A stretch of DNA of 63,969 bases, counting the filler, from Folioceros fuciformis (lineage: Eukaryota), in assembly GCA_049999805.1 (NCBI GenBank). It is 7 parts of 7 records of this genome, joined end to end, with 100 filler letters (N's around TTAATTAATTAA, not from the genome) between each part and the next. Parts side by side here need not be neighbours in the genome. Positions count along the whole stretch, not along the records: positions 62,910 to 63,969 come from JBNGIO010005945.1; 6 more parts are not named here. The stretch is one strand, 5' to 3'. The notes beneath the pieces are model-generated. The model was not told the origin of the DNA. It saw nothing but the letters and a program-made list of their open reading frames with translations, and did not search any database. The translations under genes were made by a program, and so were the position numbers. Within the stretch, counting starts at the first letter, position 1; each line of letters begins with the position of its first letter. Shown here piece after piece: positions 12,439-63,969 of this stretch.

Positions 12439-12582
12439 TTGGTACAAGCTATGTGGAACCCTTGGACATTGTGTTGCACGTGACCAGATCCAGTTTAGTT
12501 GCAAAAACCCTTGGTACAAGCTATGTNNNNNNNNNNTTGGACATTTTGTTGCACGTGACCAGATCCAGTTTAGTTGCAAAAA
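12439..12582. repeat. ~72-bp tandem repeat spanning a small N gap
   Basis: TTGGTACAAGCTATGT and TTGGACATT(G/T)TGTTGCACGTGACCAGATCCAGTTTAGTTGCAAAAAC each seen twice; may be a gap overlap artefact. Confidence 0.55.
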
Positions 12583-26046: not shown

Positions 26047-29000
26047 TGTAGGGTTATTAAAGCCCAATGTGCTTAGACTAATGTGTTTAGTCTAAGATTA
26101 GTGTCTAGTTAAGTATCATTAGTTTAGATTAGCTTAAGCTAATCTATAGGAAGCTTCTTGCGCAGCTTCCTGTGCGCTTCTTGTGAAGCTTCCTAGGGAG
26201 CTCTTCTAGAGGGTATAAATACCCCCTTGAGCTCCCTTGCTATTGAGACTCATTGTGAGAGTGTGACCTCTCTTTCTCCTCTCCTCCTTCACCATGTAGC
26301 TCCTATAGAGATCCTACAAGTGGTATCAGAGCTTGGTGTGGAGCTTGGTTTTGTGGAGCAACAAGGCGTGTGGTATGGAGGAGTGGGCTGCGAAGCCTGG
26401 TCAAGGCGCTGTTGCCTTGTTCGCGCACATGGCAGTGTGTAAATCCTAGCAACGCGGAGCATCGAGGAGGGCGCCACAGTGCCACCCCGCAGCTCGAGGT
26501 GCTACCCCAGAGCGGGTGCAGAAGGGCGTGGGCAGGTGCAGCGGACAGGCCGCCGGGGCGCAACGAGGGCCGCCGGGGCATAGGAGGGCGCCGTGCCGCC
26601 AGGCTCGCATCCTGGCGTCATGGAGGACGCCAGGATGCCGCCGGGGTGCCAGGTCCCCCCAGGCGGGGGGGTGCCAGGCCGGCAAGCCACCCAGGGCGCC
26701 AAGGGCCATGAAGGTGCCCCCGTCGAGGGCGCCTGACCCTGGGTGCCAACCGATCGAGTCCGCTGGGCGTTGGCCCTCTGAATCATCGGGCTTGGGCCTC
26801 ACCAGATTGTGGGGCGTCGCCGGAGCGTGGGCGTCACGGCCGCCGAGCGCCGGTGAGCGAATGCCGCATTGCGGTCACCAAAGTGCCGACGCCGAGAGCA
26901 AGAGTGCGGGCACCGAACCGATCCCAGCCACGAAAGTCAAGATCTCGATCGGACAACGGGAGATATTCCACTTGTGAGCGACCGAAGCCTAAATTCTGGA
27001 CAGCTGTTTCGTTTTAAGGGTAACTTTTTACATTTCGACCACTTTGTAACTAGCCTTTTGGTTGATTTGCATCGACTTTGAAACATGACGTCCTCGGGAA
27101 ATGTCATGTTCAATATCGAGAAGTTAGACGGTACTAACTTCCCATTCTGGAAAGAACAAGTATATAATGTTCTAGTACAGAAGAAGCAGATCAAGCCCAT
27201 CAAGCTACTAGGAGTGAAACCTGTTAGCATGACTCAGGATGAGTGGCAGGATGTAAAAGGTAGCCTGTTAACAGAGGAGGTGAACAAGAAGAATATGGAA
27301 CCCTTGAAAGATTCCAATGCCCTCATGATGAGCGGAAGGTCCACTTCAAAGGGGAAGGACAAGGAGCGAAGTCTTTCCCATAGTAAGTCTCACAGTTGTA
27401 ACAATGTTGAGTGTTACCATTGTCACAAGAAAGGTCACCTCAGAAGGGATTGCAAGAAATTCAAGAAAGGACAAAGAAAAGAAAAAGAAGCAGAGCGACA
27501 ACAAGGCAAGTCCGAGTGTCAAGCATGACGAGGTGAACTCTGTTGATGATGGAGATGTTCTTACCTCTTCTTCCTTCAATTGTGCACAACTGACAGCCGT
27601 GGAGAGTCACTTATTCTCTAATTGGATAATTGACTCTAGAGCATCTTTCCATATTACTCCGCATAGGGAGTGGTTTAGCACCTATGATGCTACTAGGAAA
27701 GGATGTGTTCGGCTTGGAAATAACTATGCATGCGAGATTGCAGGCGTTGGTGATGTGCAGCTGAAGTTCGACAATGGATCTTCATTCGCACTGAAGGATG
27801 TTAAGCATGTTCCGAAGTTGACCAAAAACATGATTAGCACAGGGCAGTTGGATGACGCTGGCTACCACTGTTGGTTTGGAGATCATTCTTGGAAGATCTC
27901 CAAAGGTTCTTTTGTGTTAGCTCGTGGATCGAAGTGTGGCACTTTGTACTCACTTCATGTAACCATTGTCAAGGAGCATGTGATTTGTGTCACGGAACAG
28001 CCAAGTGTTTCCTCGTGGCATAGTCGGTTAGGACATATGTCTAAAAAAGGAATGAAGATCCTATCTTGTTTTGGTCATGTCCTTGCTTTTGACTTCTCTG
28101 ATGTCTCCGTGTGTGAGCACTGTTTGTATAAGAAATAGACGAAGTCACCACATGGAGCAAGAGGTAAACACAAAAGTAAACCTCTTGAGTTGGTTCACAG
28201 TGACGTTTGTAGACCTATGCCCGCTGTATCGTTAGGCGGTGCATCTTATTTTGTCACTTTCATAGATGATTTCTCACGCAAGGTGTGGGTTTATCCTTTG
28301 AGGAGAAAGGATGATGTTCTGACAGTGTTTCAGAAATTCATCACCCTTGTGGAGAATCAATTTGGCCTCCGACTGAAGTGTCTAAGGACAGACAATGGGG
28401 GAGAGTATGTTTCGAAGGCTTTCCAGTCATTCTGTGATTCCAAGGGAATCAAGAGAGAATTGACTGCGCCGTATACTCCTCCCTAGCATGGTGTGGCTGA
28501 ACGGATGAACAGAACCATCTAGGAGAGGATGCGTAGTTTGTTGTCAAACTCTGTATTGCCTAATAGATTTTGGGCAGAAGCAGTGGTTACTGCGGTGCAT
28601 CTTATTAACAGATCTCGTAATAGGGCTGTGGATGAACAGGTTCCAAAGGAGATGTGGTCTGGAAAGAAGCTATCATACAAGCATCTACGAGTGTTTGGCT
28701 GTGAGGCATACTACCATGTTCTGAAGGAGTTTCGGGACAAGTTGGCACCCAAGTCCAAGAAATGTATTTTTCTTGGCTATGGTGAGTCTGGTGAGATGGG
28801 ATATCGTCTATGGGATCTAGAGGCCAAGAAAATGGTTCGCAGCAATGACGTGTTCTTCAATGAGGCCAAGATGCACAAGAAGCCTACTCCAACTGTGGAG
28901 GTGCGACAGGCGGTCTTCCAAGAAGATGGACTTGACCGTCCCACGCAGGTTGAACGTCGTGATGTGCAGGAACCAATTCCTCCACTTGTAGAAGAGGAGA

Positions 29001-29506
29001 GAGTGCAACCAACTCCGGTCGAGGCGCCATTGCTTTGTAGGTCAGAAAGGATTTCACGTCCTCCTGACATGTATGTCGCATCTCTTGATTATGTCATGCT
29101 GACGGATTGTGGGGAGCCCTCTTGTTATGAAGAGGCCATGTCAGTGACTAATAAGGACAAGTGGGAGAAGGCAATGCAGTCGCAGAAGGGTTCGCTCCAT
29201 AAAAACCAAACTTGGGAGTTGGTTCGGTTGCCTAGGGGCAAGAAGGCGTTGCCATGCAAATGGGTGTATAAGATGAAGGACATACCCCATTATGGCAAAC
29301 CCAAGTACAAGGCACGATTGGTTGCTAAGGGTTTTAAGCAACAGCAAGGTATTGACTTTGATGAGATTTTCTCGCTAGTTGTCAAAATGACCACCTTGCG
29401 ATGTGTTCTAGGTCAAGTTGCGAGACACGACATGGAAATTATCCAGATGGATGTGAAGTCGGCATGGTGATCTCCTGCAAGAGGTATACATGGAGCAACC
29501 AGAGGG
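26047..29506 (+). mobile_element. Ty1/copia family A, copy 3 (5' LTR 26047-26318, PBS 26321-26332, gag ATG 27085 with internal deletion, truncated in RT)
   Basis: LTR homologous to 14099-14369; perfect PBS TGGTATCAGAGC; CYHCHKKGHLRRDC, integrase, [11 protein letters not shown]. Confidence 0.93.
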
Positions 29507-29867: not shown

Positions 29868-29967
29868 NNNNNNNNNNNNNNNNNNNNNNNNNNNNNNNNN
29901 NNNNNNNNNNNTTAATTAATTAANNNNNNNNNNNNNNNNNNNNNNNNNNNNNNNNNNNNNNNNNNNN
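29868..29967. other. Artificial contig spacer (44 N + TTAATTAATTAA + 44 N); the same spacer occurs at 45132-45231, 53557-53656, 56738-56837, 61470-61569 and 62810-62909
   Basis: Identical 100-nt construct with stops in all frames repeated six times. Confidence 0.97.
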
Positions 29968-30743
29968 GAGATCTGAAATCAGGCAAGCTTGTCCATGAGG
30001 ATGTCTTAAACTGTCAGGCTGAGTCCAATCTGTTTGTTGGCAGCGCTCTCATACACATGTTTGCAAATGGTGGGAGTTTGGAGGACGCCCACCAAGTATT
30101 TGAAAGGGTGTCCACAAGGAACGTTGTCATTTGGAATGTGATGATAGCAGGATATGCTCAATATGGGCTTGGTGTGAAAGCCCTGGAGTTGTACAAAACG
30201 ATGCTCGAGGAGGGCTTGTCACCAAATGACGTCACATATGTAAGCATACTAAAAGCGTGTGGCAGCATAGGAGCCTTGCAGGATGGCAAACAGATCCATG
30301 CTCAGATCCTTGCCGAGGGACTCCATGCTAGTGTCTTCATTGGGAGGTCCCTGATGAACATGTACAGGAAATGTGGGAGCTTGCGGGATGTGCAAATATT
30401 ATTTGATGGACGGGTGAACAACAATGTGGTTACATGGAGGTCCATGATCGCAAGAAATGCTCAACATGGGCTTGGGCGTGACGCCCTTCGGCTTTACTCG
30501 AGAATGCAGGAAGATGGCAGTGTGCCAGAACTCATAACATTTGTCAGCATTCTAAAGGCTTGTGCAAGCGTTGGAGCCATGCAAGATGGCAAGCAGATAC
30601 ATCGTCAAATTTTGAAACGGGGACTTGGAGGGGATGCGCTTGTTGGAAGTGCCTTGATGAACATGTATGTGGAGTGCGATGACATAGATGATGCTCGAAT
30701 TGTATTTGATGGATTGTCAGAAAGAGATGTGGTGACGTGGACC
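29968..30743 (+). pseudogene. PLS-class PPR fragment (first copy, 5' end cut by the contig edge)
   Basis: P/L/S motifs RNVVIWNVMIAGYAQ, TYVSILKAC, VFIGRSLMNMYRKCG. Confidence 0.85.
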
Positions 30744-30789
30744 GTAACTCTTGCCTTCAAATTAGGAGTTAAAGCCCGGCTCGCCTGGA

Positions 30790-31617
30790 TGTGCCAAGCA
30801 GTAGCAGAATTTGAGAAGAGGTTGCCTTCCGATGGCTGGGCGAATGATGAAAGTAAGGTCTCACAAAACTCATACACAGAAGATTGCAAGTCAGAGAGTT
30901 TCCTGCAACGTTTGGAGCACGGGCTGCCGGTAATACCCGGTTCTCTGTTCACCAGGATTTACGTGGTTTCCCTCTTGCCAGGCTCTACTAGAAGCCTGAG
31001 GATATTCCCAGTGGAAGCAGTGCTGGTAGTGTAGAAGAGAGCTATTATCTCGAAACGACCTTGGACTCCGCAGACCGACAATTTGGTGAAAGAGTTAGTT
31101 TCAGTGACCCCAGACATTTTGGCAAAGGTTGATCACGCCTGCTACGTTGGAGCAGGTAGAAGCCCATCTACGCCAGAAAGAAGGAGAACTGGCATCATAC
31201 ATGGCCCGACTGGTCTGTATCTCAACGGCTGTTTTTGGTAGTGAAAGTGCTCCAGCCAGGTCTGGAGTCAGGGTCGCTAGGTCTGGAGTAAGCAGGAATC
31301 TCATGCTCTTGTTTGGTACTTCAGTTATCGCTCTTGTTATCTTGTTGGTTCACTTTCTACTCCTTGGTGCAGAATTCTTTGGGAAGTACTCGGAACTCAC
31401 TGGCAGACGAGCTTGTGAAGCTCACCACACAGGGACGTTCGGTTTCAGAATGTGGACTAGGCTGCTTCGCGCACTTGATGAAATTTAGCCTCAGCATCTG
31501 CAGTGTGAACACTATGGTCTGGAGGCACCTTCACTACCAGCATTGCGCGCTGAGTTTGATTCACTCCGCCGTCGACACACGTCAGCTTTGGAACTCATGG
31601 GGGAACGTGATGAAGAG
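30790..31617 (+). pseudogene. Intron-containing 3' fragment of a golgin candidate 5 / TMF1-like gene (second copy 41593-42420)
   Basis: SAGSVEESYYLETTLDS, ITP..EAHLRQKEGELASYMARL, RNSLADELVKLT and LRAEFDSLRRRHTSALELMGERDEE match the plant GC5 C-terminus; donor at 31433 reads GG; last exon not found. Confidence 0.8.
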
Positions 31618-33671
31618 GTAATCTACGTTGCAGACAGTGGCCGCAATTGAACCTTCCGGATGAGTGTGACACTCGTCTGTTCCCAGTTGTCACAAGCTAA
31701 GAATGATGTGGCATGTGCTCAGTGCTACCTGGAAGACGAATCCACACATAATTCCCTCTGCTCCTCCAGAAGCCATTATGGTGGCGCCGCCTGCACCTCT
31801 TGTCATGATGATTAAAGGCCTCGACATACCGGAAGGGTACTGACGAACGCAGTCAACTGGTGTTCATAGAGGTTCTGGAAGCTTACCTTGCCATATGTGA
31901 GTTCATAGTGTTGAGGTGTAGAATGTCCACGTAACAGGAGTAGGGCCGGTTGTACAAAACTGTTCTACTTTCCTATGAACAGTATGAGCCTTCTCCTCGG
32001 AAGTCGTTGGCTATGGGGCGGCTGATGACGCCAGCGACTCCAAGACGACAACGCCCTTGAAGGTCGATTTGATGAATTTATCGTTGCTTCTGTGGACTGT
32101 AGGGCTTCAGTGCCAAGCTGGGATGCGAACCATACTGTTGGACATGTATGAATATATCACTCGATTCAGTGGATAGAGAATCTACCAAGTAACAACGCAA
32201 AGTGCCTGGTGTTGTACTGTAGCTGCAATCTGTGTCGGAACAAGTACTCGAACCCGTGTAAGAACATGGGAGCTTCCAGGTGAATCTGTGAGAGTGCAGT
32301 TCCCTTGACAAACGTTATCCCTTGGGCACCATGAAGACGTTCGAGTGATGGAGGCCATTCTCGCAAGTGCTTACTCCATATGAAACATTTACGCGCACAA
32401 CTCGGAGGTGGGTAACCTGGTGTGTCTCTGTTGCGCGGTGGCACCGAGCAGGCAGAAATTCAGAAGCCTCGTGGCGCCGCATTCAGCCCACCTCTTGTAC
32501 GAGTCCGCTGTCCAGCGTGAAGCATGAGGTGGCGCCTCGTCGGCGACGCGGGAAGGCAGACCGGTTGCGCGTGGCGAATGCGTCCCCAGTCTGCTAACGA
32601 GGAGGCCAGCTCTATCTGCTGGCGCCCTGCGAATCGCAACTTCGCTTCCCAAACGTCCCGAACAAAACAAAACCCTGAACGCCGTAGGGCATGGTAGCAC
32701 CACCCCCAGTGGCGGTAGCGGTCGGAACCCACCGTCCCCATTGGGTACTGCATAGCACGCTTAGGATCTGCACAGGAGATAGCGGTTCGCTCTGTTCACT
32801 GCACGTGTCATCGCTGGAAGATGAGCTTGCTAAAGTGAGCTCCCTTGCCGCACGCGTAGCTTCCACAACCCCTTCAGCTGCCACTTTGTTTGGAATAGTA
32901 TGGATTCTTCCCTAGTTCCGCAAGGACCGGATCCGGAGGACGATGAACGATGAACATCAGTATCTCAGATGCGTCAGTTGAGCTGGCCGTTGAGAATCCA
33001 GAAGCTGTCTCATCGCTGGAAGATGAGCTTGCTACAGTGAGTTCCCTTGCCGCATGCTTTAGCTTCCACGACTCCTCGGCCGCCCGTTTGACTAATTTTG
33101 CGTTAGCTCCGCTAGGATCATAGCCGGCGACGTTCAATGACAAACGTCAGCGTTTCAAATGCGTCAGTTGCGCTGGCGTCGCGAATCCGGAGCCTTAGGG
33201 CTTGAAAGGTGGCCTTTTTCAGCGGGACTTCAGGTTTATCGGCAGACCACCCTGTCTTGGCAGAGGACAAATTCTGGAACCGGCAAAGGACCTAGCTGAA
33301 ACTGATGTAAGGGTTTTATTACAAAGGTTCTTCAATATACAAGAAGGGTGAGTGACTTGATATTCACTAGCCAGTGCATCCGAGAAACACGTGCACATCC
33401 ACCTCCCACTACAGTAATTACGATCTAAGATTGATGTACCACGCACCTTCTGATCTGTGATGTGGTGATGGCTTCCTGGAGCCCAGAGTGAGCTAACGAG
33501 CTACGAACAACCACAGACTGTACAGAACCACCTCAGCCAGCCACACAGGACGGTCTTCAGAATCTGCTGGATGAACGGACGGTCTTCAGAATCTGCTGGA
33601 TGAACTGCCATCGTCGCTGCATCCTGACTATCCTTCGCAGATGTCTTCACTTGCTCTACAGATTTCATGAT

Positions 33672-35575
33672 TCACTCATACAGGTGGGAAGGTAAACGAG
33701 GCAGAGGGTTAGCCAGAAGAGGCTTGGCTCGAGGCAAGGTTAGGCCAAACTTCTCCTCCATATCCAACTCATCAGGTGCCTGACCCTGTGGCAGAGACCA
33801 ATCAAAGCTGTGCACCAGCCTCGCAAGAGAGTATTGCACCATAATCAGCCCCATGTGTATTCCAGGGCAAGATCGCCGCCCGGAGCCAAAAGGGAGCAGC
33901 TGGAAGTGCTGGCCTCGCACGTCGATGTCGCAGTTGAGGAATCTGTCAGGTTGAAATTCCAGCGGGTTCTCCCACACGTCGGGCTGCCGGGAGATGCTCC
34001 ACACGTTCACGAAGGCGGTGGTCCCGGGAGGGATGTAGAAGCCCCCCACCTCGCAAGCCTCGCTGCTCACATGTGGAACCAGTAACGGCGCGACTGGATG
34101 AAGGCGGAATGTTTCCTTGACCACAGCCTGTAAGTAGGGAAGGTTTGCGAGATCGGATTCTGTCACCACCCTCTCTTTTCCTACAACCTCGTCCAGCTCT
34201 TGGTACAGTTTCTGTAGAGTCTGGGGATTTCGGAGCAGTTCTGACAAGCCCCACTCCATTGTGATGCTAGATGTGTCCGTGCCGGCAGTGATCACGCTCT
34301 GCACAACATGCACAAACGATGTTCAGGGAACACTGAACAGTGTACTAATGCATCAAACATCCTCGACTGAACTGGACTGGACGTAAGCTTTTTAACATGA
34401 GGTGTACCATGGCCAGAGCCTTCATGACAACCTCCTCCATATGTGGAGCACCGTCTTCTCCAGGTAGGGAGAGCAAGATATCGACGTAGTTCCTGGCTTC
34501 GTGGTCATTCCTGGTCTGCCTATGCTCCTCGAGCACTGCTGTCAGGAAGGAGTCAAATCGCTGGTGAACTCGGCGCATTCTCTTCTCGTAGTTCATAATT
34601 CGGTCCAGGAAGGCCAAGGATGGGATGACATCTCCTATCAAGGAAACTCCATTCAGGAAAAAGAGTTCCTGGACCAGACTTCTAAATTCTTCGGCCAAGT
34701 CCTGCCCAGGAATTCGCAGGCTCAGAATAACATAACGCCGGCGAGCGAGATTCGTCCGTTAATTGGGACCAATTACGTACCTTTTCATCCCCTTTGTCGG
34801 ATTGACAGGATTTGGTGTAAGAGAAGAACTTTGTGCTCATCAAGATACGTGTCATTACGTTCATGGTGAGGAAAAACGTCCTTTGCTTCAAGTCCACTAG
34901 TGGGGACCTCTGACTGTCCTCCAGGATGGACTTCACCATTCTGGCCATCTCCTCATCCCTCACAGACTGGAACTGCTGAACCCGCTTCGCACTTAGAAGC
35001 TCGGAATTTGCAACCCTCCTGCGTTCCAATGTATCATGCATATGCAGCGGTAGCCAACGCAGCACACGTATGGACTAGAGCAGGTGTTTGGAATTCGATC
35101 GACCTGGTCGCTGGAACAGGTCCTACTGAACCAGCACGATGATCAGAATCGTGAATACTGACCTAAGAAATCTCCAGTGTGAGTTGTAAGATGCGAAGCC
35201 CATGGTGTTCTCCCCGTACGCCATGGCATCCTTGGCAGTCGTGGAGCGGCGGTTTGCGAACTCCCGGTCCTGAGTCTTGAGCACCTCTTTTGCCATCTCC
35301 GGAGAGGACACAACGATCGCCAGCCTCGACCCCAGCCGCAATGACATGATGGGGCCATACTGTCGGGCTAAGCGGTGTAGCTCCTCGTGCGGATGGCTGG
35401 AAGTTACAAGAAGGAAAAGGTTGCCGAAAACTGGCACCCCTGGCGGGCCGGGCGGTAGCCTCTCCTTCTGCCTGCTGCTCTGCTTCCAACGCTGCAGCAA
35501 CACAGCCAGCGCCGCCAGTACTAGCGCCAGGTACAACAACCAGTCCTTCAGATCGTGGGCCACGTACTCAGCCAT
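33672..35575 (-). CDS. Cytochrome P450, CYP71 clan (A-type), 4 exons (35575-35163, 35018-34781, 34701-34408, 34298-33672)
   Basis: Membrane anchor + LPPGPPG, AGTDTSS I-helix, KETFRLHP, PDRF, heme motif PFGSGRRSCPG; GT-AG introns in frame, no stops. Confidence 0.93.
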
Positions 35576-40215: not shown

Positions 40216-41546
40216 ACTAAGGCCCATCTCTGTAGATGGTGAATGGCTGGCCCATGCTGCTGAGGTTCTCACGTTGCTTCAGCTGGTCTGGACAGAGTGT
40301 CAGGAAGTGGCAGCCATGTGGAGTATGGAAGGGTGTCAGAAGATTGGAGCAGATTACTGGAGGAAGGCCGGCTGCATGAGGCGGTCCAAGCTTTGGACTT
40401 GTGTAGGGGTGGATCGTACATATCTGCAGAGAGGCTGTACAGGCTTCTGAAGGAGAACATTATAAACAGGGACCTGGAAGCGGGCAAATACATCCATGCT
40501 CTTACTGCCCATAGTGGGCATGAGGTGGATTCTTTTCTAGGGAACCACCTCATCCGCATGTATGCTTCTCACGGAAAATTGCTGGAAGCTAGGGATGTCT
40601 TCAGTAAGCTGCCTGCCTCTAATGTGTCATATGGGCTTCACTGATCTGAGCTCATGCTGATCGTGGACACGCTCAACGTGCTATACAACTGTATCAGAAA
40701 ATGCGGGACTCAAGCATAGACGCTAACGACAATATATTTGTGGCAGTCCTGAAAGCCTGTGCAAGTCAAGGAGATCTGAAATCAGGCAAGCTTGTCCATG
40801 AGGATGTCTTAAACTGTCAGGCTGAGTCCAATCTGTTTGTTGGCAGCGCTCTCATACACATGTTTGCAAATGGTGGGAGTTTGGAGGACGCCCACCAAGT
40901 ATTTGAAAGGGTGTCCACAAGGAACGTTGTCATTTGGAATGTGATGATAGCAGGATATGCTCAATATGGGCTTGGTGTGAAAGCCCTGGAGTTGTACAAA
41001 ACGATGCTCGAGGAGGGCTTGTCACCAAATGACGTCACATATGTAAGCATACTAAAAGCGTGTGGCAGCATAGGAGCCTTGCAGGATGGCAAACAGATCC
41101 ATGCTCAGATCCTTGCCGAGGGACTCCATGCTAGTGTCTTCATTGGGAGGTCCCTGATGAACATGTACAGGAAATGTGGGAGCTTGCGGGATGTGCAAAT
41201 ATTATTTGATGGACGGGTGAACAACAATGTGGTTACATGGAGGTCCATGATCGCAAGAAATGCTCAACATGGGCTTGGGCGTGACGCCCTTCGGCTTTAC
41301 TCGAGAATGCAGGAAGATGGCAGTGTGCCAGAACTCATAACATTTGTCAGCATTCTAAAGGCTTGTGCAAGCGTTGGAGCCATGCAAGATGGCAAGCAGA
41401 TACATCGTCAAATTTTGAAACGGGGACTTGGAGGGGATGCGCTTGTTGGAAGTGCCTTGATGAACATGTATGTGGAGTGCGATGACATAGATGATGCTCG
41501 AATTGTATTTGATGGATTGTCAGAAAGAGATGTGGTGACGTGGACC
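40216..41546 (+). pseudogene. PLS-class PPR pseudogene lacking E/DYW domains
   Basis: ORF 40297-40644 and ORF 40701 onward join via a 1-nt frameshift at about 40630 plus an in-frame TGA at 40646; PPR motifs end at DVVTWT. Confidence 0.85.
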
Positions 41547-44474
41547 GTAACTCTTGCCTTCAAATTAGGAGTTAAAGCCCGGCTCGCCTGGATGTGCCAA
41601 GCAGTAGCAGAATTTGAGAAGAGGTTGCCTTCCGATGGCTGGGCGAATGATGAAAGTAAGGTCTCACAAAACTCATACACAGAAGATTGCAAGTCAGAGA
41701 GTTTCCTGCAACGTTTGGAGCACGGGCTGCCGGTAATACCCGGTTCTCTGTTCACCAGGATTTACGTGGTTTCCCTCTTGCCAGGCTCTACTAGAAGCCT
41801 GAGGATATTCCCAGTGGAAGCAGTGCTGGTAGTGTAGAAGAGAGCTATTATCTCGAAACGACCTTGGACTCCGCAGACCGACAATTTGGTGAAAGAGTTA
41901 GTTTCAGTGACCCCAGACATTTTGGCAAAGGTTGATCACGCCTGCTACGTTGGAGCAGGTAGAAGCCCATCTACGCCAGAAAGAAGGAGAACTGGCATCA
42001 TACATGGCCCGACTGGTCTGTATCTCAACGGCTGTTTTTGGTAGTGAAAGTGCTCCAGCCAGGTCTGGAGTCAGGGTCGCTAGGTCTGGAGTAAGCAGGA
42101 ATCTCATGCTCTTGTTTGGTACTTCAGTTATCGCTCTTGTTATCTTGTTGGTTCACTTTCTACTCCTTGGTGCAGAATTCTTTGGGAAGTACTCGGAACT
42201 CACTGGCAGACGAGCTTGTGAAGCTCACCACACAGGGACGTTCGGTTTCAGAATGTGGACTAGGCTGCTTCGCGCACTTGATGAAATTTAGCCTCAGCAT
42301 CTGCAGTGTGAACACTATGGTCTGGAGGCACCTTCACTACCAGCATTGCGCGCTGAGTTTGATTCACTCCGCCGTCGACACACGTCAGCTTTGGAACTCA
42401 TGGGGGAACGTGATGAAGAGGTAATCTACGTTGCAGACAGTGGCCGCAATTGAACCTTCCGGATGAGTGTGACACTCGTCTGTTCCCAGTTGTCACAAGC
42501 TAAGAATGATGTGGCATGTGCTCAGTGCTACCTGGAAGACGAATCCACACATAATTCCCTCTGCTCCTCCAGAAGCCATTATGGTGGCGCCGCCTGCACC
42601 TCTTGTCATGATGATTAAAGGCCTCGACATACCGGAAGGGTACTGACGAACGCAGTCAACTGGTGTTCATAGAGGTTCTGGAAGCTTACCTTGCCATATG
42701 TGAGTTCATAGTGTTGAGGTGTAGAATGTCCACGTAACAGGAGTAGGGCCGGTTGTACAAAACTGTTCTACTTTCCTATGAACAGTATGAGCCTTCTCCT
42801 CGGAAGTCGTTGGCTATGGGGCGGCTGATGACGCCAGCGACTCCAAGACGACAACGCCCTTGAAGGTCGATTTGATGAATTTATCGTTGCTTCTGTGGAC
42901 TGTAGGGCTTCAGTGCCAAGCTGGGATGCGAACCATACTGTTGGACATGTATGAATATATCACTCGATTCAGTGGATAGAGAATCTACCAAGTAACAACG
43001 CAAAGTGCCTGGTGTTGTACTGTAGCTGCAATCTGTGTCGGAACAAGTACTCGAACCCGTGTAAGAACATGGGAGCTTCCAGGTGAATCTGTGAGAGTGC
43101 AGTTCCCTTGACAAACGTTATCCCTTGGGCACCATGAAGACGTTCGAGTGATGGAGGCCATTCTCGCAAGTGCTTACTCCATATGAAACATTTACGCGCA
43201 CAACTCGGAGGTGGGTAACCTGGTGTGTCTCTGTTGCGCGGTGGCACCGAGCAGGCAGAAATTCAGAAGCCTCGTGGCGCCGCATTCAGCCCACCTCTTG
43301 TACGAGTCCGCTGTCCAGCGTGAAGCATGAGGTGGCGCCTCGTCGGCGACGCGGGAAGGCAGACCGGTTGCGCGTGGCGAATGCGTCCCCAGTCTGCTAA
43401 CGAGGAGGCCAGCTCTATCTGCTGGCGCCCTGCGAATCGCAACTTCGCTTCCCAAACGTCCCGAACAAAACAAAACCCTGAACGCCGTAGGGCATGGTAG
43501 CACCACCCCCAGTGGCGGTAGCGGTCGGAACCCACCGTCCCCATTGGGTACTGCATAGCACGCTTAGGATCTGCACAGGAGATAGCGGTTCGCTCTGTTC
43601 ACTGCACGTGTCATCGCTGGAAGATGAGCTTGCTAAAGTGAGCTCCCTTGCCGCACGCGTAGCTTCCACAACCCCTTCAGCTGCCACTTTGTTTGGAATA
43701 GTATGGATTCTTCCCTAGTTCCGCAAGGACCGGATCCGGAGGACGATGAACGATGAACATCAGTATCTCAGATGCGTCAGTTGAGCTGGCCGTTGAGAAT
43801 CCAGAAGCTGTCTCATCGCTGGAAGATGAGCTTGCTACAGTGAGTTCCCTTGCCGCATGCTTTAGCTTCCACGACTCCTCGGCCGCCCGTTTGACTAATT
43901 TTGCGTTAGCTCCGCTAGGATCATAGCCGGCGACGTTCAATGACAAACGTCAGCGTTTCAAATGCGTCAGTTGCGCTGGCGTCGCGAATCCGGAGCCTTA
44001 GGGCTTGAAAGGTGGCCTTTTTCAGCGGGACTTCAGGTTTATCGGCAGACCACCCTGTCTTGGCAGAGGACAAATTCTGGAACCGGCAAAGGACCTAGCT
44101 GAAACTGATGTAAGGGTTTTATTACAAAGGTTCTTCAATATACAAGAAGGGTGAGTGACTTGATATTCACTAGCCAGTGCATCCGAGAAACACGTGCACA
44201 TCCACCTCCCACTACAGTAATTACGATCTAAGATTGATGTACCACGCACCTTCTGATCTGTGATGTGGTGATGGCTTCCTGGAGCCCAGAGTGAGCTAAC
44301 GAGCTACGAACAACCACAGACTGTACAGAACCACCTCAGCCAGCCACACAGGACGGTCTTCAGAATCTGCTGGATGAACGGACGGTCTTCAGAATCTGCT
44401 GGATGAACTGCCATCGTCGCTGCATCCTGACTATCCTTCGCAGATGTCTTCACTTGCTCTACAGATTTCATGAT

Positions 44475-45101
44475 TCACTCATACAGGTGGGAAGGTAAAC
44501 GAGGCAGAGGGTTAGCCAGAAGAGGCTTGGCTCGAGGCAAGGTTAGGCCAAACTTCTCCTCCATATCCAACTCATCAGGTGCCTGACCCTGTGGCAGAGA
44601 CCAATCAAAGCTGTGCACCAGCCTCGCAAGAGAGTATTGCACCATAATCAGCCCCATGTGTATTCCAGGGCAAGATCGCCGCCCGGAGCCAAAAGGGAGC
44701 AGCTGGAAGTGCTGGCCTCGCACGTCGATGTCGCAGTTGAGGAATCTGTCAGGTTGAAATTCCAGCGGGTTCTCCCACACGTCGGGCTGCCGGGAGATGC
44801 TCCACACGTTCACGAAGGCGGTGGTCCCGGGAGGGATGTAGAAGCCCCCCACCTCGCAAGCCTCGCTGCTCACATGTGGAACCAGTAACGGCGCGACTGG
44901 ATGAAGGCGGAATGTTTCCTTGACCACAGCCTGTAAGTAGGGAAGGTTTGCGAGATCGGATTCTGTCACCACCCTCTCTTTTCCTACAACCTCGTCCAGC
45001 TCTTGGTACAGTTTCTGTAGAGTCTGGGGATTTCGGAGCAGTTCTGACAAGCCCCACTCCATTGTGATGCTAGATGTGTCCGTGCCGGCAGTGATCACGC
45101 T
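44475..45101 (-). CDS. Last exon of the duplicated CYP71-clan P450 (rest cut by the contig end)
   Basis: Same translation as 33672-34298. Confidence 0.85.
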   Translation of the reverse strand, partial: SVITAGTDTSSITMEWGLSELLRNPQTLQKLYQELDEVVGKERVVTESDLANLPYLQAVVKETFRLHPVAPLLVPHVSSEACEVGGFYIPPGTTAFVNVWSISRQPDVWENPLEFQPDRFLNCDIDVRGQHFQLLPFGSGRRSCPGIHMGLIMVQYSLARLVHSFDWSLPQGQAPDELDMEEKFGLTLPRAKPLLANPLPRLPSHLYE

Positions 45102-45231
45102 CTGCACAACATGCACAAACGATGTTCAGGGNNNNNNNNNNNNNNNNNNNNNNNNNNNNNNNNNNNNNNNNNNNNTTAATTAATTAANNNNNNNNNNNNN
45201 NNNNNNNNNNNNNNNNNNNNNNNNNNNNNNN

Positions 45232-53556: not shown

Positions 53557-53656
53557 NNNNNNNNNNNNNNNNNNNNNNNNNNNNNNNNNNNNNNNNNNNN
53601 TTAATTAATTAANNNNNNNNNNNNNNNNNNNNNNNNNNNNNNNNNNNNNNNNNNNN

Positions 53657-54547: not shown

Positions 54548-54789
54548 AGAAAGCCCTTAGTACAGGCGTGCTCCTAGTGGGTGGGAAGCCTAGTGATGGT
54601 TATGTTGGCAGAGAGGGTGGGTTGTCACTTCTGATGCCAAGCCTACAAGGTGCTCATTCAGGGGCACTAGAGGGGTAGTTTTTCCGGGTNNNNNNNNNNN
54701 NNNNNNNNNNNNNNNNNNNNNNNNNNNNNNNNNNNNNNNNNNNNNNNNNNNNNNNNNNNNNNNNNNNNNNNNNNNNNNNNNNNNNNNNN

Positions 54790-56737
54790 CATTGGCTTAG
54801 TAAATATATCGGCTATCTGCTCGTCTGTGTTGACATACACAAGATCAATAGCTCCAGATAAAATCCTTTCGCGAAGAAAATGATAATGTATTTCAATGTG
54901 TTTTGTCCTGGCATGAAACACTGGGTTTCGCGCCAACTGTATGCTGCTAAGATTGTCACAGTAGATAACAACCTTGTCGTTGACCTGCAATCCAAAATCT
55001 CCGAGTAACTTACAAATCCAAGTCACTTCACACGCTGCCATTGCTGCGCCTCTGTATTCAGCTTCTGTACTAGACAAAGCCACTATAGGCTGCTTCTTGC
55101 TACTCCATGTAATTGCTGCACTCCCAAGTGAAAAAATGAATCCACTTGTAGATCTACGATCAGTAACACTGCCTGCCCAATCTGCATCTGTGTACCCATA
55201 CAGGTTTATTTCTAAATCTGCAACATAAAAGAGAGCATGATCCATAGTTGCCTTCACATAGCGCAACGTTCGCCTTACTGCATCCAAATGTGGCTTTCTT
55301 GGCGCCTGCATAAACTGACTTTGCAATCCCACTGTATAGTTCAAATCTGGTCGGGATAGAGTGAGATATATCAAGCTACCCACAATCTTCCTGTACATTG
55401 TTGGATCTTCAAGTGCTTCACCATCATGAGCACTGAGCTTTAGATTTTGATCCAAAGGAATCGAGATTGGCTTGCACTCAACCATACCATACTTAGTTAG
55501 TACATCCAACGCATACTTCCGCTGTGACAGCCAAATGCCTGTGTTGGTTTGTATAATTTCAATGCCCAAAAAGAACCTCAGTTCACCTAGGTCCGCCATC
55601 TTGAACTCTTGTTGTAGAAGTTCCTTGATCTGCTCCACTTGATCCAACTGATTACCTCCAATGATTAGATCATCCACATAAATGGTCACAAAGACCAGTC
55701 ATTTTGTACTTTTGCACACATACAACGAATGATCCGCATCTGCCATGTTGAATCCGATGTGAATCAGATGCTGAGCAAGACGCTCATGCCAAGCCCTCGG
55801 GGCTTGCTTCAGTCCGTACAACGTTTTTTTCAGCTTGCACACATGATTTGGATGATCCAAATCCTCATAACCTGGTGGCTGGTCCATGTATACTTCTTCC
55901 AGCAAATCTCCATGTAAAAACGCATTCTTCACATCCATATGATGTAGGACCCAACCTTTCGATGCCGCTAGTGCGATCACGGTTCGAATTGTTGCCATTT
56001 TGGCAACTGGACTGAACGTCTCCTCAAAATCTATTCCACATGTCTGGGCATATCCCTTGGCCACAAGCCTTGCCTTGTACCTGTTGATACTACCATCTGC
56101 ATTGTGTTTGACCTTGTACACCCATTTGCAACCTATTGGTTTTTTGCCTTCAGGTAATTGTACTAGGTCCCATGTTGCATTCTGATTTAACGCATTCATT
56201 TCTTCATCCATAGCATGTTCCCACTTTGTGTCTCCAATAGCTTCTTCAAAGCTTCTTGGTTCCACATCCTGTACAACCTTTGCCATATAGGCATGGTGCC
56301 TAGCTACATAGCTATCATAGGTCAACCGCTGTATTGGAACCTTCTGCCTTCCAGATCTCCGTGGGATTGAACCACTTCCAGGGGTTGATTGAACCTCTTT
56401 TGCACCAGGTGTTTCGATTTTCGGTACACCGAATTCCTCATCCAAGCTCTGCTCAGAGTCGCTTGAATCATCCGCACCTGCACTTAGGTCTGGTATCTTT
56501 GAATCCTGGACTTTTTCCTTCCCTTTGCGAGACACAGCTGTGGAGCTCGTAGGACTCACACTACCTCGCAACCTGCCACTCCATGGATTCTGAACATTTG
56601 TCGAGTTTGATGACGCTTGCGGTCCACTCAACACTTGTGATTGTTGACCTGCATTGCTTGTTACCTCAGTTTCAAGCACATCAGCTACACTACTTCCTTG
56701 TACTTCAAAGTACCAGCTACCCATTTCATCAAAGACT
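54790..56737 (-). mobile_element. Ty1/copia family-B-related RT/RNase H
   Basis: [32 protein letters not shown]; linker NPWSGRLR shared with ORF 51021-51665. Confidence 0.92.
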
Positions 56738-56837
56738 NNNNNNNNNNNNNNNNNNNNNNNNNNNNNNNNNNNNNNNNNNNNTTAATTAATTAANNNNNNN
56801 NNNNNNNNNNNNNNNNNNNNNNNNNNNNNNNNNNNNN

Positions 56838-59800
56838 TATTTGGGCATTACGTATGCGAGGAGCATTAAGACAAAGAGCATTATGGGGTATCGTTGATGG
56901 ATCCATAACAAGACCAAGGTCTCATGAAGAACGTGAACTTCAGATTTCCTAGGACGCCAGGGATGAGAAGGCACAAGATTTATTGATAAGTGGACTCTCT
57001 CAACAAATGGTTAGGCATGTTGCACATGCAAAAACATCTCATGAAATGTGGTCTCACCTTGCTCAATTATATTCATCACAAGATGTAATGAGTATTGTGG
57101 CAGCCTCTCGTAATTTCCGTAACTTGTCTATGAAAGAATCCGATACAATTGAACATCATATTAATGCTTTCAGACAAGCACGCTCCCAAGTTGAATCTGC
57201 GACTAGTGTTCCTATATCAAAGATGGAAGCTTATGTCACTCTTCTGTCTTCATTGCCTTCCTCCTATCGTCCATTCATCACTACTCAAAACGCAGTTATA
57301 CGTAATTCACGGAGAATTGCAGATGATGGCACAAAAGGGTTTGACATAAGTGTTTCTGAATTGATCGAAGCACTTCTTCAGGAGGAGGCAAGTAGGCGCC
57401 ATACTCACTCCAGGCCTAATAAACAACAAGTAATGTACTTGCAGAGAGGCAGAGGAAGAGGACGAGGCAGAGGCAGAGGCCGAGGTTTCTCTTCCCAGCG
57501 TCCTCTATATTCTTCGCCAAGTACAAACATTGGAGAAAGCTCTTCATCCACACCTTCAAAGGGTAAAAAGAAGAGCGGCATCATATGCAATTGGTGTAGG
57601 ATCCCTAATCATATGGAAAAGGACTGTCGCAAAAAGAAGAATGGTGAACCTCGCAAGGAGGCTTCACATGGAGTTAATGTAGCATCCAAAAAGCAAACTT
57701 CATCAACTCCAACAGTGCTCACTGTATGTTTGGCATCATCCAAGCCTGCTAATACCTCATGGTATTTAGACTGTGGAGCAACATCACATAGATGTTACAA
57801 CAAAAGTTATTTCCAATCATACTCACCAACCACAGGACATCAATCTATCCTCTTGGGAGATGATCACAACCCGCCTATCGAAGGTATTGGTTCTGTTGTA
57901 CTGACATGTGATTCTGGACAAGTCCTTCACCTCCACCAAGTCCTCCATGTTCCATCAATGTGCAAGAATTTATTATCAGTTGCAAGTATCTGTCAAATCC
58001 ATTCTATGCAAGTGACCCTCTTTACAGATAGTTGCTTTCTCTCTTACGTAGGTGATAGCAATCATATCATTTGTAGTGGTACTTTAGAAGATGGCCTTTA
58101 TAAATTGTCGTCCTAGTAGGAGGTCAACAATCTGCTCATGTCGCCAGTTCTTCGCCTCAAAGTCCCTCTCCCACAATGTTATGGCATTGTCGTCTTGGTC
58201 ATCCAAATAGTCAAAAATTAGTACAAATGTCTAAGGCAGGAAATTTATACCGCACACCCTGCCTCTCTCACATTCAACACGTCTCATGGTGTGAAACTTG
58301 TGTCATTACCAAAAGACATCAAGCCCCCTTTAAGAACATCTCCCCACAGAGGGCGAAATGTCCTCTAGAGCTTGTTCATACATATATTCGTGGCCCTATC
58401 TCTACACCTTCTTTCAGTGGTAGCAGATATTTTATGACCTTCATCGACGACTACTCTCGGTTTACCCTTACCTATATCTTAAGTCATAAAGGAGATGTTT
58501 ATCGTTACTTCCAGGACTATATGGTATGGGCTGAGAGGCTAACTGAGAAGAAACTCAAAACCTTACGTTCTGATAATGGTGGCGAATTCACTTCCAATCA
58601 ATTTACGGATTTTTGTCGCCTTTGCGGTATTGCTCAACAACTTACTGTTGTTTATACTCCGCAACAAAATGGCGTAGCTGAAAATAAAAATCTACGTCTT
58701 CAAGAGATTACTAGCTGCCTGTTAAACCAAGCAAAGTTACCGAAGGTATACTGGGCCGAAGCACTCCTCACATCCACATATCTCATGAATCGACTGCCCA
58801 CTTCAGCAGTCCAAGATATGACACCTTATAAAGCCTTTATAGGCAGAAAGCCCTCCATAGAACACCTCCGCATTTTTGGATCTCCGGCATATGTATTTGT
58901 CCCCAAGGCATTAAGAAGGAAGGTCGACCCAAAGGCCGTAAAATATACCTTTATTGGTTATTCAGAAGGAATCAAGGGTTATAAATTGTTTGATCCTTTT
59001 ACTAAGAAGCTTCTCTATGCTCGCAGCGTCACTTTTCATGAACATTCCCTATTTTCATCTTCAGTGGGAGATGTTTTGTCTCCTCACCTTTCATCTAAAG
59101 ATATAGAATATGAATGTTCTTCCTTTGATGCTAGTGACTATATTGTGGATTTTCCTGATCCCGCTCTCCAACTTCCCTTCGATGGACCTGTCATGCAGGA
59201 GGAGGAATTAGGACCTGAACGGCGTCCTGACACACCCGCATCCGACACCGACACAGCGGAGGAGGAGGAGCAATTTCCACATTCATCTGATCCCATTGAG
59301 GCCATTTCGGAAAATGCAGTACCTCCTGTTTTAGAAGACAATGATCAGTTGGAAGCTGATGATGTTGAAGAAATGGACCCTTTAGAACATGAAGATGAAC
59401 TAGTTCCTGTGAAAGATACACTTGCACCAAGGTACAACCTTAGATCACGTCCACTAATCTTCGGCCCTGCTGGTTGAAAAGAACCTCCTTTGGGATATCT
59501 TGCTATTTTTCCTGATTCTAACTTTCCTGAGTCTCTTTATAATCAAGCTGTGTATGCAGCCACTGTAGACTTAGAAGAGCCCCTTACCCTAAAACAAGCC
59601 TTCTCCTCTCCCTCCAAACATCTATGGAAGGCAGCTGTAGACTCAGAGTATAATTCCCTTATTAGTAATTCTACATGGAAATTAGTTGAACCTCCTAAGG
59701 GTAGAAAAATAGTAACCAGCAAATGGGTATTTAAGATAAAGAGAAAAGGAGATGGATCGGTGGAAAGGTATAAAGCACGTCTAGTTGCTAGAGGTTTTAC

Positions 59801-61217
59801 TCAAGTCCGTGGACTAGACTACATACCTTGGGCCACTTATGCTCCTGTAGCTAAGTTTGCTACTCTTCGTATGATTTTCGCTATATGTGCCCAGTATGAT
59901 CTTGAACTTCATATGATGGATGTGAAGACACCATACTTGTATGAGCGCTTGAAAGAAGAAATATACATGAAGCAACATGAGGGTTATGAGGTCAAAGGAA
60001 AGGAGCATTTAGTATGTAAACTCATTAAGGGCATATACGGACTCAAGCAATCCGGCAAAAATTGGAACTTGACTATCCACATACAACTCTTGAACAAGGG
60101 ATTTAAGCAAAGTAAAGGTGATGCTTGCTTATACATTTACCTTAAGGAAAATGATATATTTTACCTTTTACTATACGTCGATGACGTTTTTATGGCAACA
60201 AACTCTCTCATTCTCCTAGCTGAGATAAAAGCATGGCTTCGCACATTATATGAGACGACCGACTTAGGAGAAATGAATTATGCACTTGGAGTAAATATTA
60301 TCCGTGATAGGAGTAATAAAAAGTTGAGCATAGTTCAAACCAAGTATATAAAGGAGAGTTTAGCAAAGTTTGGAATGGAAGATGCAAAGCCTGCACCCAC
60401 ACCTTTTGCTAGTGGCATNNNNNNNNNNNNNNNNNNNNNNNNNNNNNNNNNNNNNNNNNNNNNNNNNNNNNNNNNNNNNNNNNNNNNNNNNNNNNNNNNN
60501 NNNNNNNNNNNNNNNNNNGAGAAATTGGAAATGGCATCTGTCCCATATCGACATGCTGTTGGCACACTCATATATTTAAGCAATTTTACTAGACTTGATA
60601 TTTCTTTTGAAGTCAGCTCTTGTTCACAGTTTTTGGAGAACCATGGACATCAACATTGGATGTCAGTTAAGCGTATTTTCCGTTACCTTAAAGGGACTAT
60701 GCAAACAGGACTGACATTTAAGCATACACCAACAATCAAAACATTAACACTTACGGCATATGCCGATGCTGATTATGCTGGTAACCCTGATACACGAAAA
60801 TCCGAATCAGGTTATGTTTTACTTCTTGAAGGAGCTCCAATATCATGGTCCAGTAAGAAACAGCCTACCATAGCCTTGTCTAGTATTGAATCTGAATATT
60901 GAGTACTAACCTCTGTTTCCAAGGATATTGTATGGTCTAGGCTAGTCTTAAGTGAACTTAATCACCTTTAGCAAAAATCAACACCTCTCTTTAGTGATAG
61001 TCAGGACGCCATAGCACTTGCTAGAAACCCTGTTTTCCATTCTAGAACTAAACACATAGCTATTGAATATCACTATATCAGAGAAAAGTTGGAAGATAAC
61101 ACTATAGATATCACTTATATACCAACACAAAACAATCTAGCTGATTTATTAACAAAGTCATTAGGGAGAGATCTACATTTAAAACACATGAAAATGTTAG
61201 GAATTCAAGAGGTTTAA
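56838..61217 (+). mobile_element. Ty1/copia family C, nearly complete gag-pol (few stops and frameshifts), LTRs not seen
   Basis: gag with RG repeat and CNWCRIPNHMEKDC, protease WYLDCGAT, LWHCRLGHP, RSDNGGEF, LYVDDVF, ADADYAG, RTKHI. Confidence 0.93.
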
Positions 61218-61569
61218 GACAACTAGCTAGTCTGTGTAATTGTATTTTTCCTACAGTCCACACATCTGGTCTAGCATAGTAATTTCCTCCCCTAACTCTA
61301 TGTAGTCTTCACTATACTCCTTATCTTCTCTCTCTAATGCCCAGAAGGATCTTCCTTAGTATTAGGATCATCACGATCTTCCTCAGTACCTGGTATTTGT
61401 GCCGCCTTGCGGTACCACATGAGGTTTGTATGATTTGCCAGCTTCCTTTCTTCTTTTTTCCTCGCAAGCNNNNNNNNNNNNNNNNNNNNNNNNNNNNNNN
61501 NNNNNNNNNNNNNTTAATTAATTAANNNNNNNNNNNNNNNNNNNNNNNNNNNNNNNNNNNNNNNNNNNN

Positions 61570-62809: not shown

Positions 62810-63085
62810 NNNNNNNNNNNNNNNNNNNNNNNNNNNNNNNNNNNNNNNNNNNNTTAATTAATTAANNNNNNNNNNNNNNNNNNNNNNNNNNNNNNNNNNN
62901 NNNNNNNNNCATCGAGCTAGAGTGAACTAAACCATGTTACAAGGCTTGCTTGCGGCTAATCCAAAAGGGCATGCACAACCACAAGCACAAAAGGAACCAT
63001 ATGGCGCACAAGATACTAGCTCGTCGCCGCGTTGGAGTGCCAAGTGCTCCAATTTACTTTGAGGCACTAGTTGCCATGAACGTTG

Positions 63086-63676
63086 TCAATGGACGCGGTA
63101 GTACTCCCAAAGGCTTATGCGTGGCTTTGGATCCACCTGCGGTTTTCTTGGTGACCACCAATCGTACTTTCCAGTGTCCTGCGTATCCATCGCATTCGCA
63201 TGACTACTCGGCCACAAGATTTCCGATGAACCTACCTCACATAGGTTCTCAACACCAAACTCCTTGGATTTTCCAGCTCCTTTCAAGATGCAAAGTACGG
63301 TCATCGCCAAGTGCTTTCCCTTTTGTAGTCCATCTTCTAAAAGGGCATCGAGTTTTGGATCACGAGGAAGTTGGAGAACCACGGCTCCACCATTCTTTCC
63401 ATGTTGTAAGGTTACCCGTTTCGGCCCTTGAGATGCTTGGCTTATTGGCATCACTGAGTACTTTGCGCGTAAAACCTCAACCACGTGACATTGCTTGGAG
63501 TGTAGGATGTAGTCATGGACTTCTTGATGCGTGAGAACGTCTTCTCCCCTCAAGAAGTAGAACTTTCCGCCTTTTGTGTTCTCTCGTACGATACATGGCC
63601 GACCTCCTAGAAGGATGTTGTCTCCGATAGCGACATCAGCTACTTGCTTCAAAGCAAGACCCGGCAAGTGTTGCAT
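63086..63676 (-). CDS. Divergent eIF5A-like protein lacking the hypusine loop, intronless, 196 aa
   Basis: Colinear with eIF5A: GDNILLGGRPCIV ~ GGHIVIKNRPCKV; GEDVLT..VHDYILHSKQCHV..V.R..Y ~ AIDIFT..LEDIVPSSHNCDVP.V.R..Y; LQLPRD ~ LKLPTD; GLQKGKHLAMTVL ~ GFDEGKDIVVSVM. Confidence 0.7.
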   Translation of the reverse strand: MQHLPGLALKQVADVAIGDNILLGGRPCIVRENTKGGKFYFLRGEDVLTHQEVHDYILHSKQCHVVEVLRAKYSVMPISQASQGPKRVTLQHGKNGGAVVLQLPRDPKLDALLEDGLQKGKHLAMTVLCILKGAGKSKEFGVENLCEVGSSEILWPSSHANAMDTQDTGKYDWWSPRKPQVDPKPRISLWEYYRVH

Positions 63677-63969
63677 TTGAGCCTAGAGAAGTCTTTTGAT
63701 TTGAGAAACAAGTATGGATGAAAGAACTTGGAGGGCGTTGGTAGAACGTCGCACTCTCCCGCTGTGGTGCAATAAGGTGCGTGTGTGTACTCGAGGACTA
63801 CCTACACCCTCTACATATAGTGGAGAGTCTCCTTGGGCTTTGAGTTTGAGCTTTATAGCACATTCTTATCACTATTCATGGTGATTTTGTGAAAGCGTCC
63901 TTGGGCTTTGAGTTTCCGCTCGATTGTGAAAGTCTTTGCGGGACTTTGAGTAGTTTTGGTGCATATAAT

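Follow-up and report, generated by a model that had tools for sequence, protein, structure and literature searches.

Structure and Position of an eIF5A-Like Open Reading Frame

The window analysed here is a stretch of 63,969 nucleotides from Folioceros fuciformis (assembly GCA_049999805.1). Its last piece, an unplaced contig of 1,060 bp (62910–63969), holds an open reading frame (ORF) that resembles eIF5A and is the sole such gene on that contig. ORF calling and translation place it at 63086..63676 on the minus strand, stop codon included, where it encodes a protein of 196 residues from an ATG start, without internal stops or frameshifts. The same coordinates were given for an intact 196-residue ORF in the first-pass annotation of this DNA, and the frame is indeed open throughout. 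An in-frame stop lies two codons 5' of the ATG. A candidate splice acceptor (ttctctag, followed by G) stands immediately 5' of the same ATG, and given this candidate an exon upstream of the ORF is possible. The 176 nt downstream of the ORF contain no A-run that could represent a poly(A) relic, and the flanks end at the contig edge.

Two other genes of the window consist of a single long uninterrupted ORF: one encodes a Cir_N/zinc-knuckle protein of 781 residues (269–2614, minus strand), and the other an HCNGP/SAP30BP protein of 495 residues (8437–9924, minus strand). Either the genome is intron-poor for such genes, or these two are retrocopies. The presence of other long single-ORF genes weakens the argument that the eIF5A-like ORF, being intronless, is a retrogene.

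The GC content by codon position in the ORF is 0.60, 0.38, and 0.48, and that of the contig as a whole is 0.475, similar to the host pieces of the window. On the opposite strand, an antisense open frame of 194 residues with a TTG start (62950–63534, plus strand) overlaps most of the eIF5A-like ORF; Pfam gave nothing for it at E ≤ 10, and it is probably a by-product of the codon make-up of the sense strand. The only Rfam match on the contig, with 20.3 bits versus a gathering score of 85, was rejected as a sub-threshold chance match.

Homology to eIF5A

When the ORF protein was compared with the PDB by phmmer, a single true match was obtained, Arabidopsis eIF5A-2 (3hks_A, E 7.5e-5, 25.7 bits), in an alignment between residues 13–130 of the query and 32–151 of the chain. 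The two other rows at E ≤ 10 are unrelated proteins with E about 1, and human, yeast, and archaeal IF5A gave no PDB match at E ≤ 10. A wider eIF5A set was assembled from metagenome contigs scanned with a back-translated hypusine-loop motif, which yielded 120 loci; a length filter kept 27 of them as full-length single-ORF IF5A and left out the other 93. The ORF protein matches 15 of these 27 at E ≤ 0.01, the best being L069, of green-lineage type (32.3 bits). A search with L069 returned 2,656 proteins, the best 120 of which were used as a green-lineage eIF5A set; the named rows of this set are plant, green-algal, or marine-transcriptome proteins, and many rows carry no source name. All 120 are matched by the ORF protein in phmmer, with 8.8–37.0 bits.

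For profile comparison, a reference alignment was built from the 82 members of this set with lengths of 155–172 residues, leaving out 38 by length. The hhalign comparison with this alignment gave 96.4 %, E 1.2e-9, over 114 columns with 32 % identity (query residues 11–129). In addition, eight plant or green-lineage eIF5As compared with the contig by tblastn produced one high-scoring segment pair each, all eight in the frame of the ORF and the longest reaching residue 148, so that both eIF5A domains are covered. Frameshift relics were not detected, as tblastn in the other frames of the contig gave nothing better than E about 0.7. The top three clusters found in the ESM Atlas all carry eIF-5a families (score 0.89, 191/256 features); once the eIF5A families were set aside, only unrelated bacterial and phage clusters with scores of at most 0.85 were left, and these were rejected. 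Derivation from eIF5A and alignment over both domains, as proposed in the first-pass annotation, are therefore upheld by hhalign, phmmer, and tblastn. As judged from these comparisons, the ORF is a true, although very distant, eIF5A homologue, most like plant or green-lineage eIF5A.

eIF5A is among the most conserved eukaryotic proteins. The identity of the ORF to the 82 green-lineage eIF5As is only 24–32 %, while those eIF5As are 61–98 % identical to their first member. The end branch of the ORF measures 3.72 changes per column in a tree of 41 sequences, versus a median of 0.14, and with such a long branch the ORF falls into no supported set among the green-lineage eIF5As.

Searches for closer relatives were negative. 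A word-indexed protein search restricted to near lengths gave 166 candidates, none at E ≤ 0.01. Scans of metagenome contigs with the ORF protein gave 140 pattern matches, and those of IMG/VR with the ORF protein and with an alignment (A1) gave 6 and 53, respectively, none of which was confirmed. An HMMER scan of 1.84 billion representatives, among which the ORF protein itself is absent, returned one match, P0002, which was rejected as a repeat artefact, its E of 1.2e-11 being produced by 14 repeated short matches. P0002 is a predicted protein of 972 residues made of tandem repeats of ~68 residues, and each of its 14 repeats matches residues 104–124 of the ORF protein, where the P0002 motif NALFEDGYQKKKH resembles DALLEDGLQKGKH of the ORF.

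A missing orthologue is weak evidence in this case. The best database match of SAP30BP, a conserved nuclear protein encoded in the window, has only 54 % identity, and the matches from conifers, ferns, a lycophyte, and liverworts have ~38–47 %, distances which indicate that the host lineage has no close relative in the collections. Thus, the search for orthologues in related genomes that the first-pass annotation had called for found none, in databases without a close relative of the host. Literature searches, at the level of listings, showed no report of hypusine-less eIF5A paralogues or pseudogenes in plants.

Loss of the Hypusine Loop and Domain Architecture

The counterpart of the N-terminal SH3-like domain of eIF5A spans approximately residues 10–68 (63473..63649, minus strand; approximate boundary), and that of the C-terminal OB domain approximately residues 69–148 (63233..63472, minus strand), with insertions of 4 and 9 residues. 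The first is delimited by hhalign, MAFFT, and structure prediction, and the second by hhalign, MAFFT, and tblastn. At the N-terminus, the ORF lacks ~10 residues that are present in eIF5A. At the other end, residues 149–196 (63089..63232, minus strand) form a tail of 48 residues with no eIF5A counterpart in the MAFFT alignment, no Pfam match, and a low-confidence structure prediction. This tail holds four Trp and three Tyr residues and ends in RVH. The C-terminal extension rich in Trp and Tyr recorded in the first-pass annotation is thus present, although its length had been overestimated at ~55 residues.

The hypusination loop S-K-T-G-K-H-G-H-A is invariant in 82/82 reference eIF5As. Opposite TSKTGKHGHAK of eIF5A, however, the ORF has NTKGGKFYFLR, in which the Lys aligned with the hypusine Lys is retained but H-G-H is replaced by F-Y-F. 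Residues 32–43 (ENTKGGKFYFLR; 63548..63583, minus strand) are what remains of the loop in degenerate form, flanked by a deletion of two residues on the N-terminal side and one of four on the C-terminal side. The alignment therefore confirms the earlier proposal of a lost loop in which the Lys is kept and the HGHAK context is gone. Passages of a cryo-EM study of eIF5A bound to deoxyhypusine synthase (DHS) describe how the conserved loop SKTGKHGHA enters the active-site tunnel of the enzyme (PMC10042821). Since the loop that enters this active site is destroyed in the ORF, we infer that its protein would not be hypusinated, nor would it carry out the ribosomal task of eIF5A.

Overall, the MAFFT alignment shows identity to the plant consensus at 43 of 140 aligned residues. 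Plant eIF5A (Arabidopsis eIF5A-2, 3hks; PF21485 and PF01287) is homologous to the ORF over both domains, and the two have in common the order of their elements, the hydrophobic core pattern, the R-P-C motif, and the aligned Lys. Unlike plant eIF5A, the ORF protein lacks the loop and some N-terminal residues, bears the 48-residue tail, falls below all Pfam thresholds, and is basic, with an isoelectric point of 8.8 versus 5.3–5.6 for the acidic plant proteins.

Regarding the predicted structure, AlphaFold2 (AF2) run on the ORF sequence alone gave an unusable model, with a predicted local distance difference test (pLDDT) value of 36. With the eIF5A alignment as input, the overall pLDDT rose to 68 in a model that inherits the family signal: about 90 in the N domain, 66–84 in the C domain up to residue ~130, and below 55 thereafter, tail included.

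DNA Methylation and the Origin of the Contig

Two DNA runs of the source sample (X1 and X2) contain the stretch, with unitig depths of 42.7 and 33.2, and a search of sequencing runs gave matches only in runs of this sample. In X1, an unbranched unitig of 2,071 nt spans the contig fully and continues 193 nt and 818 nt past its ends. The assembly has G at 63448 where the X1 and X2 contigs have A, so that codon 77, CCA (Pro) in the assembly, reads TCA (Ser) in these contigs. In X2, a 59-nt unitig with a depth of 15.1 joins at 63923–63952 with 29 different letters before it; this branch, absent from X1, is either a minor variant, a second copy, or an error.

All differences between a third run of this sample (X3) and the assembly are C>T (62) or G>A (79) changes, which identifies X3 as a bisulfite-type library. 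On the minus strand of 63101–63406, the changes listed correspond to conversion of 38/40 CHH sites, 0/13 CG sites, and 1/8 CHG sites (Fisher p 7e-13). In the seven X3 unitigs, the numbers of changes (86, 35, 37, 7, 9, 7, and 3) follow the CHH counts (88, 36 or 35, 37, 8, 9, 6, and 3), within 2 in 7/7 records and exactly in four of them, and the DNA 5' of the ATG shows the same agreement. Over the whole contig, CG and CHG sites are thus methylated and CHH sites seem essentially unmethylated, a pattern known in plants as transposable element-like (TE-like) methylation (teM).

Symmetric CHG methylation is a hallmark of plants, and the pattern therefore argues against a contig derived from a contaminating organism rather than from the plant. 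This origin would agree with the tiny size of the contig, unplaced and without any link to the rest of the assembly, and with the orphan nature of its sequence. Besides the unconverted CG and CHG and converted CHH sites in a run of the same sample, it is contradicted by the plant eIF5As that are the best sequence matches, by the host-like GC content, and by the presence of the stretch in both DNA runs at the depths given above. Contamination, a concern of the first-pass annotation that the plant-type methylation answers, is thus hardly credible as an explanation.

The same pattern makes present expression doubtful, since it covers both the ORF and the DNA upstream of it. Sections of a maize study report that most genes whose exons and flanks bear CG and CHG methylation are silent and poorly conserved, and that they often are pseudogenes (PMC10550312). 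Exceptions, with demethylation and high expression in endosperm, are reported in the abstract of a preprint (10.1101/2025.09.26.678861). What the maize study presents of teM genes is shared by the ORF as regards CG and CHG methylation in coding sequence (CDS) and flanks, short CDS, and poor conservation. However, teM genes are an epigenetic class of maize and not a protein family, and the meaning of the mark is assumed to be the same in this non-seed-plant-like lineage. By analogy, the ORF would be transcriptionally silent in the sampled tissue.

Decay or Constraint

Neutral divergence was simulated with substitutions only, starting from the natural L069 CDS and proceeding to the 31 % identity of the ORF. 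Drift to this identity takes 0.60 changes per site, and only 59 of 20,000 runs were free of stops. The only gaps of the ORF relative to eIF5A are of −2, −4, +4, and +9 residues, all of them in-frame. With respect to the hydrophobic core, defined by the 41 columns that are hydrophobic in at least 90 % of eIF5As, 32 of these columns stay hydrophobic in the ORF. Retention in the neutral runs was 0.61 ± 0.07, and 7 of 311 re-aligned simulations reached 0.78. Of the same 41 columns, 27–29 are kept by three archaeal-type IF5A controls with a similar identity. The combination of in-frame gaps only, no stop, and a kept core is rare under drift, which suggests that the ORF was translated through most of its evolution, with selection apparently keeping the frame and the core, and not the old functional surfaces. 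The earlier judgement that the divergence is too orderly for plain decay therefore stands, on the absence of stops and frameshifts, the four in-frame indels, and the hydrophobic core.

The reading favoured here, tentatively and at slightly less than an even chance, is that the ORF represents a lineage-specific, extremely fast-evolved plant eIF5A duplicate, which remained translated and fold-bearing through most of its divergence and has since come under TE-like silencing. Several results weigh against it. Pfam gives no family at E ≤ 10 for the ORF or its tail, and the curated eIF5A models (PF21485, IF5A-like_N, and PF01287, eIF-5a) miss the ORF; the ESM Atlas "recognition" value is 1985, under the 2300 reached by most real families. 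No relatives beyond canonical eIF5A were found in the databases searched, so that the signs of purifying selection are indirect. Columns conserved in at least 95 % of sequences are kept in 19 of 64 cases (7 are gapped), the same rate as for all columns (43/140). The replaced residues have a mean BLOSUM62 score of −0.65, no more conservative than drift (−0.78 ± 0.16 in the simulation), while the non-identical pairs of the functional archaeal controls reach −0.29 to −0.45; for hydropathy, the correlation is 0.20 versus 0.22 in the simulation. The simulation itself includes no indels and uses an algal-type CDS in place of the parent gene, and the methylation call comes from the listed changes of unitigs of one run and one sample. 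Furthermore, the ORF was chosen for being intact, which makes the stop-free statistic partly an ascertainment effect; the arguments from core retention and from the absence of frameshifts are free of this effect.

Neutral-looking replacements and the loss of invariant residues at an average rate would also suit an old dead retrocopy or pseudogene of eIF5A, without function past or present, whose frame is open by chance. The tail resembles read-through past a lost stop, orthologues are missing, and TE-like methylation lies in maize mostly on non-functional annotations, according to the same sections of PMC10550312. In addition, frames left open by chance, although rare, are bound to turn up when very many windows are scanned. 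Nevertheless, such an origin requires the ~0.6 changes per site that so few simulated sequences survive without a stop. From the general behaviour of pseudogenes, so much drift should also bring many frameshifting indels, and none is seen, the eight tblastn matches lying in one frame; the core retention stands in the top 2 % of the neutral simulations. Moreover, CpG is undepleted despite methylation, with observed/expected ratios of 0.84 in the ORF and 0.79 in the contig versus 0.36–0.67 in the other pieces of the window, a poor fit to long decay under methylation. A dead pseudogene is, on this evidence, decidedly unlikely.

Comparison with Fungal HEX-1

To our knowledge, fungal HEX-1 is the only well-known re-use of the eIF5A fold. 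The first-pass annotation saw in the ORF a plant analogue of this protein, and a neofunctionalised product of this kind, structural or self-assembling, or else acting as a decoy of eIF5A partners, would share with HEX-1 both the starting material and the first step, the loss of the hypusine site from an eIF5A fold. Parts of a published study state that Hex1 proteins carry an eIF5A domain (PMC5656841), and the signs of coding constraint described above are compatible with such a role. In the Foldseek search with the alignment-based model, which had been suggested to compare the ORF with eIF5A and HEX-1, eIF5As ranked first (1xtd and 3hks, E about 5e-8), with a root-mean-square deviation (rmsd) of 5–6 Å. 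HEX-1 structures appeared from rank 7 (E 3.5e-6) with a larger rmsd of 8–9 Å. As the model was built from an eIF5A alignment, this search shows compatibility with the eIF5A fold and cannot favour HEX-1 over eIF5A.

Nothing specific to HEX-1 was found in either the sequence or the fold searches. What HEX-1, the major protein of the Woronin body (PDB 1khi and 8qlw), shares with the ORF is an eIF5A fold without hypusine site, a fold that for the ORF is only predicted, in the eIF5A-based model. In contrast, the two have no detectable sequence similarity, with no HEX-1 chain at E ≤ 10 in the PDB sequence search, and the fit of the ORF to HEX-1 is worse than to eIF5A. The translated ending in RVH, as noted in the first-pass annotation, leaves the ORF protein without a peroxisomal targeting signal of type 1; it also comes from a plant and not from Pezizomycotina. 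Silenced chromatin with TE-like methylation is ill-suited to an abundant structural protein, and a decoy of DHS would be hampered by the destruction of the loop that enters this enzyme. A HEX-1 analogue or a decoy is accordingly very improbable.

Mobile or Viral DNA as a Possible Source of the ORF

Silencing of the TE-like type over ORF and flank is also expected of a passenger gene in recently acquired DNA, such as a mobile element or an endogenous viral insert, in which an old captured eIF5A would have evolved fast while remaining translatable, and a young insertion would then have been methylated by the host. The undepleted CpG of the contig agrees with this, as does the orphan nature of the sequence. 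The ORF lies on an unplaced 1-kb contig among unplaced pieces that are largely copia elements. The upstream flank (63677..63969), whose CG and CHG sites likewise escaped conversion in X3, holds direct repeats at 63823–63852 and 63891–63920, 83 % alike and 68 nt apart, with a third, partial copy at 63941–63951. Giant viruses have left footprints in moss and lycophyte genomes, and they carry eIF5A genes, which were matched in a BFVD fold search.

However, these viral eIF5As are only 10–18 % identical to the ORF in the structural alignment, versus 24–25 % for the Arabidopsis protein, and the closest sequences to the ORF are from plants. No transposon or viral gene lies on the contig, neither of its long ORFs has a Pfam match, and the two IMG/VR scans returned no relative. 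Self-comparison of the window showed no similarity of the contig to the rest, copia pieces included. Its GC content is host-like, and the unbranched X1 unitig is unlike what a diverged multi-copy family would give. A mobile or viral passenger is therefore unlikely, although it keeps some real chance of being correct.

Other Features of the Window

The 1,060-bp contig is separated from the rest of the window by a linker at 62810..62909 of the form N44-TTAATTAATTAA-N44. The same spacer, which provides stops in six frames, is also found at 29868–29967, 45132–45231, 53557–53656, 56738–56837, and 61470–61569. The window is thus a series of separate unplaced contigs joined by spacers, and neighbourhood across them is meaningless. 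Further N runs lie at 12527–12536, 54690–54789, and 60419–60518, and those of 100 N resemble ordinary scaffold gaps.

The other pieces of the window hold PPR, LRR, copia, Cir_N, and HCNGP/SAP30BP genes, which mark the genome as that of a plant. The second piece begins and ends with the same 4,361 nt (29968–34328 and 40771–45131, 100 % identical), at a period of 10,803 nt. It looks like a contig with overlapping ends, derived either from a circular molecule or from a tandem repeat that the assembler collapsed; the overlap duplicates a PPR ORF and an ORF of 213 residues. Copia fragments (gag, integrase, and RVT_2) are found at 28529–29470, 55699–56724, and 56983–60902, make up much of the small unplaced pieces, and have CpG observed/expected ratios of 0.36–0.50.

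Proposed Evolutionary History and Significance

According to the favoured reading of a fast-evolved and now silenced duplicate, a plant eIF5A gene would have been duplicated, and the copy would have diverged extremely fast in one unbroken frame. The copy would have kept the hydrophobic pattern of the two-domain eIF5A fold, SH3-like at the N-terminus and OB-like at the C-terminus, while losing the hypusine loop, ~70 % of the near-invariant residues, and the acidic charge, and gaining the 48-residue tail. During most of this divergence, selection may have acted on foldedness rather than on the old functional surfaces. The TE-like methylation over the ORF and its upstream DNA would keep the copy silent in the sampled tissue, so that today it may be a gene that was retired not long ago or, alternatively, one whose silencing is lifted only in a restricted tissue or stage, the former being slightly preferred. 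If made, the protein would be small, basic, and rich in beta structure, its floppy tail containing several Trp and Tyr residues, and its activity would be unrelated to hypusine.

A bolder possibility, to which only a small chance is given, is that the ORF encodes a functional non-hypusinated protein with an eIF5A fold in a land plant, the second independent co-option of this fold after HEX-1, switched on from silenced chromatin in a special tissue or stage such as reproductive cells. Its role might be, for example, nucleic-acid binding through a basic surface or assembly through the Trp/Tyr tail. The case is thin, as it consists of one copy in one genome, on an unplaced 1-kb contig with transposon-like methylation. 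On a practical level, bisulfite-type runs of a source sample can settle the question of contamination and flag ORFs that are likely to be silent. If a plant copy has indeed lost the loop while keeping frame and core, the eIF5A fold can leave its duty in translation more than once, and the ORF would provide a natural hypusine-free scaffold for study.

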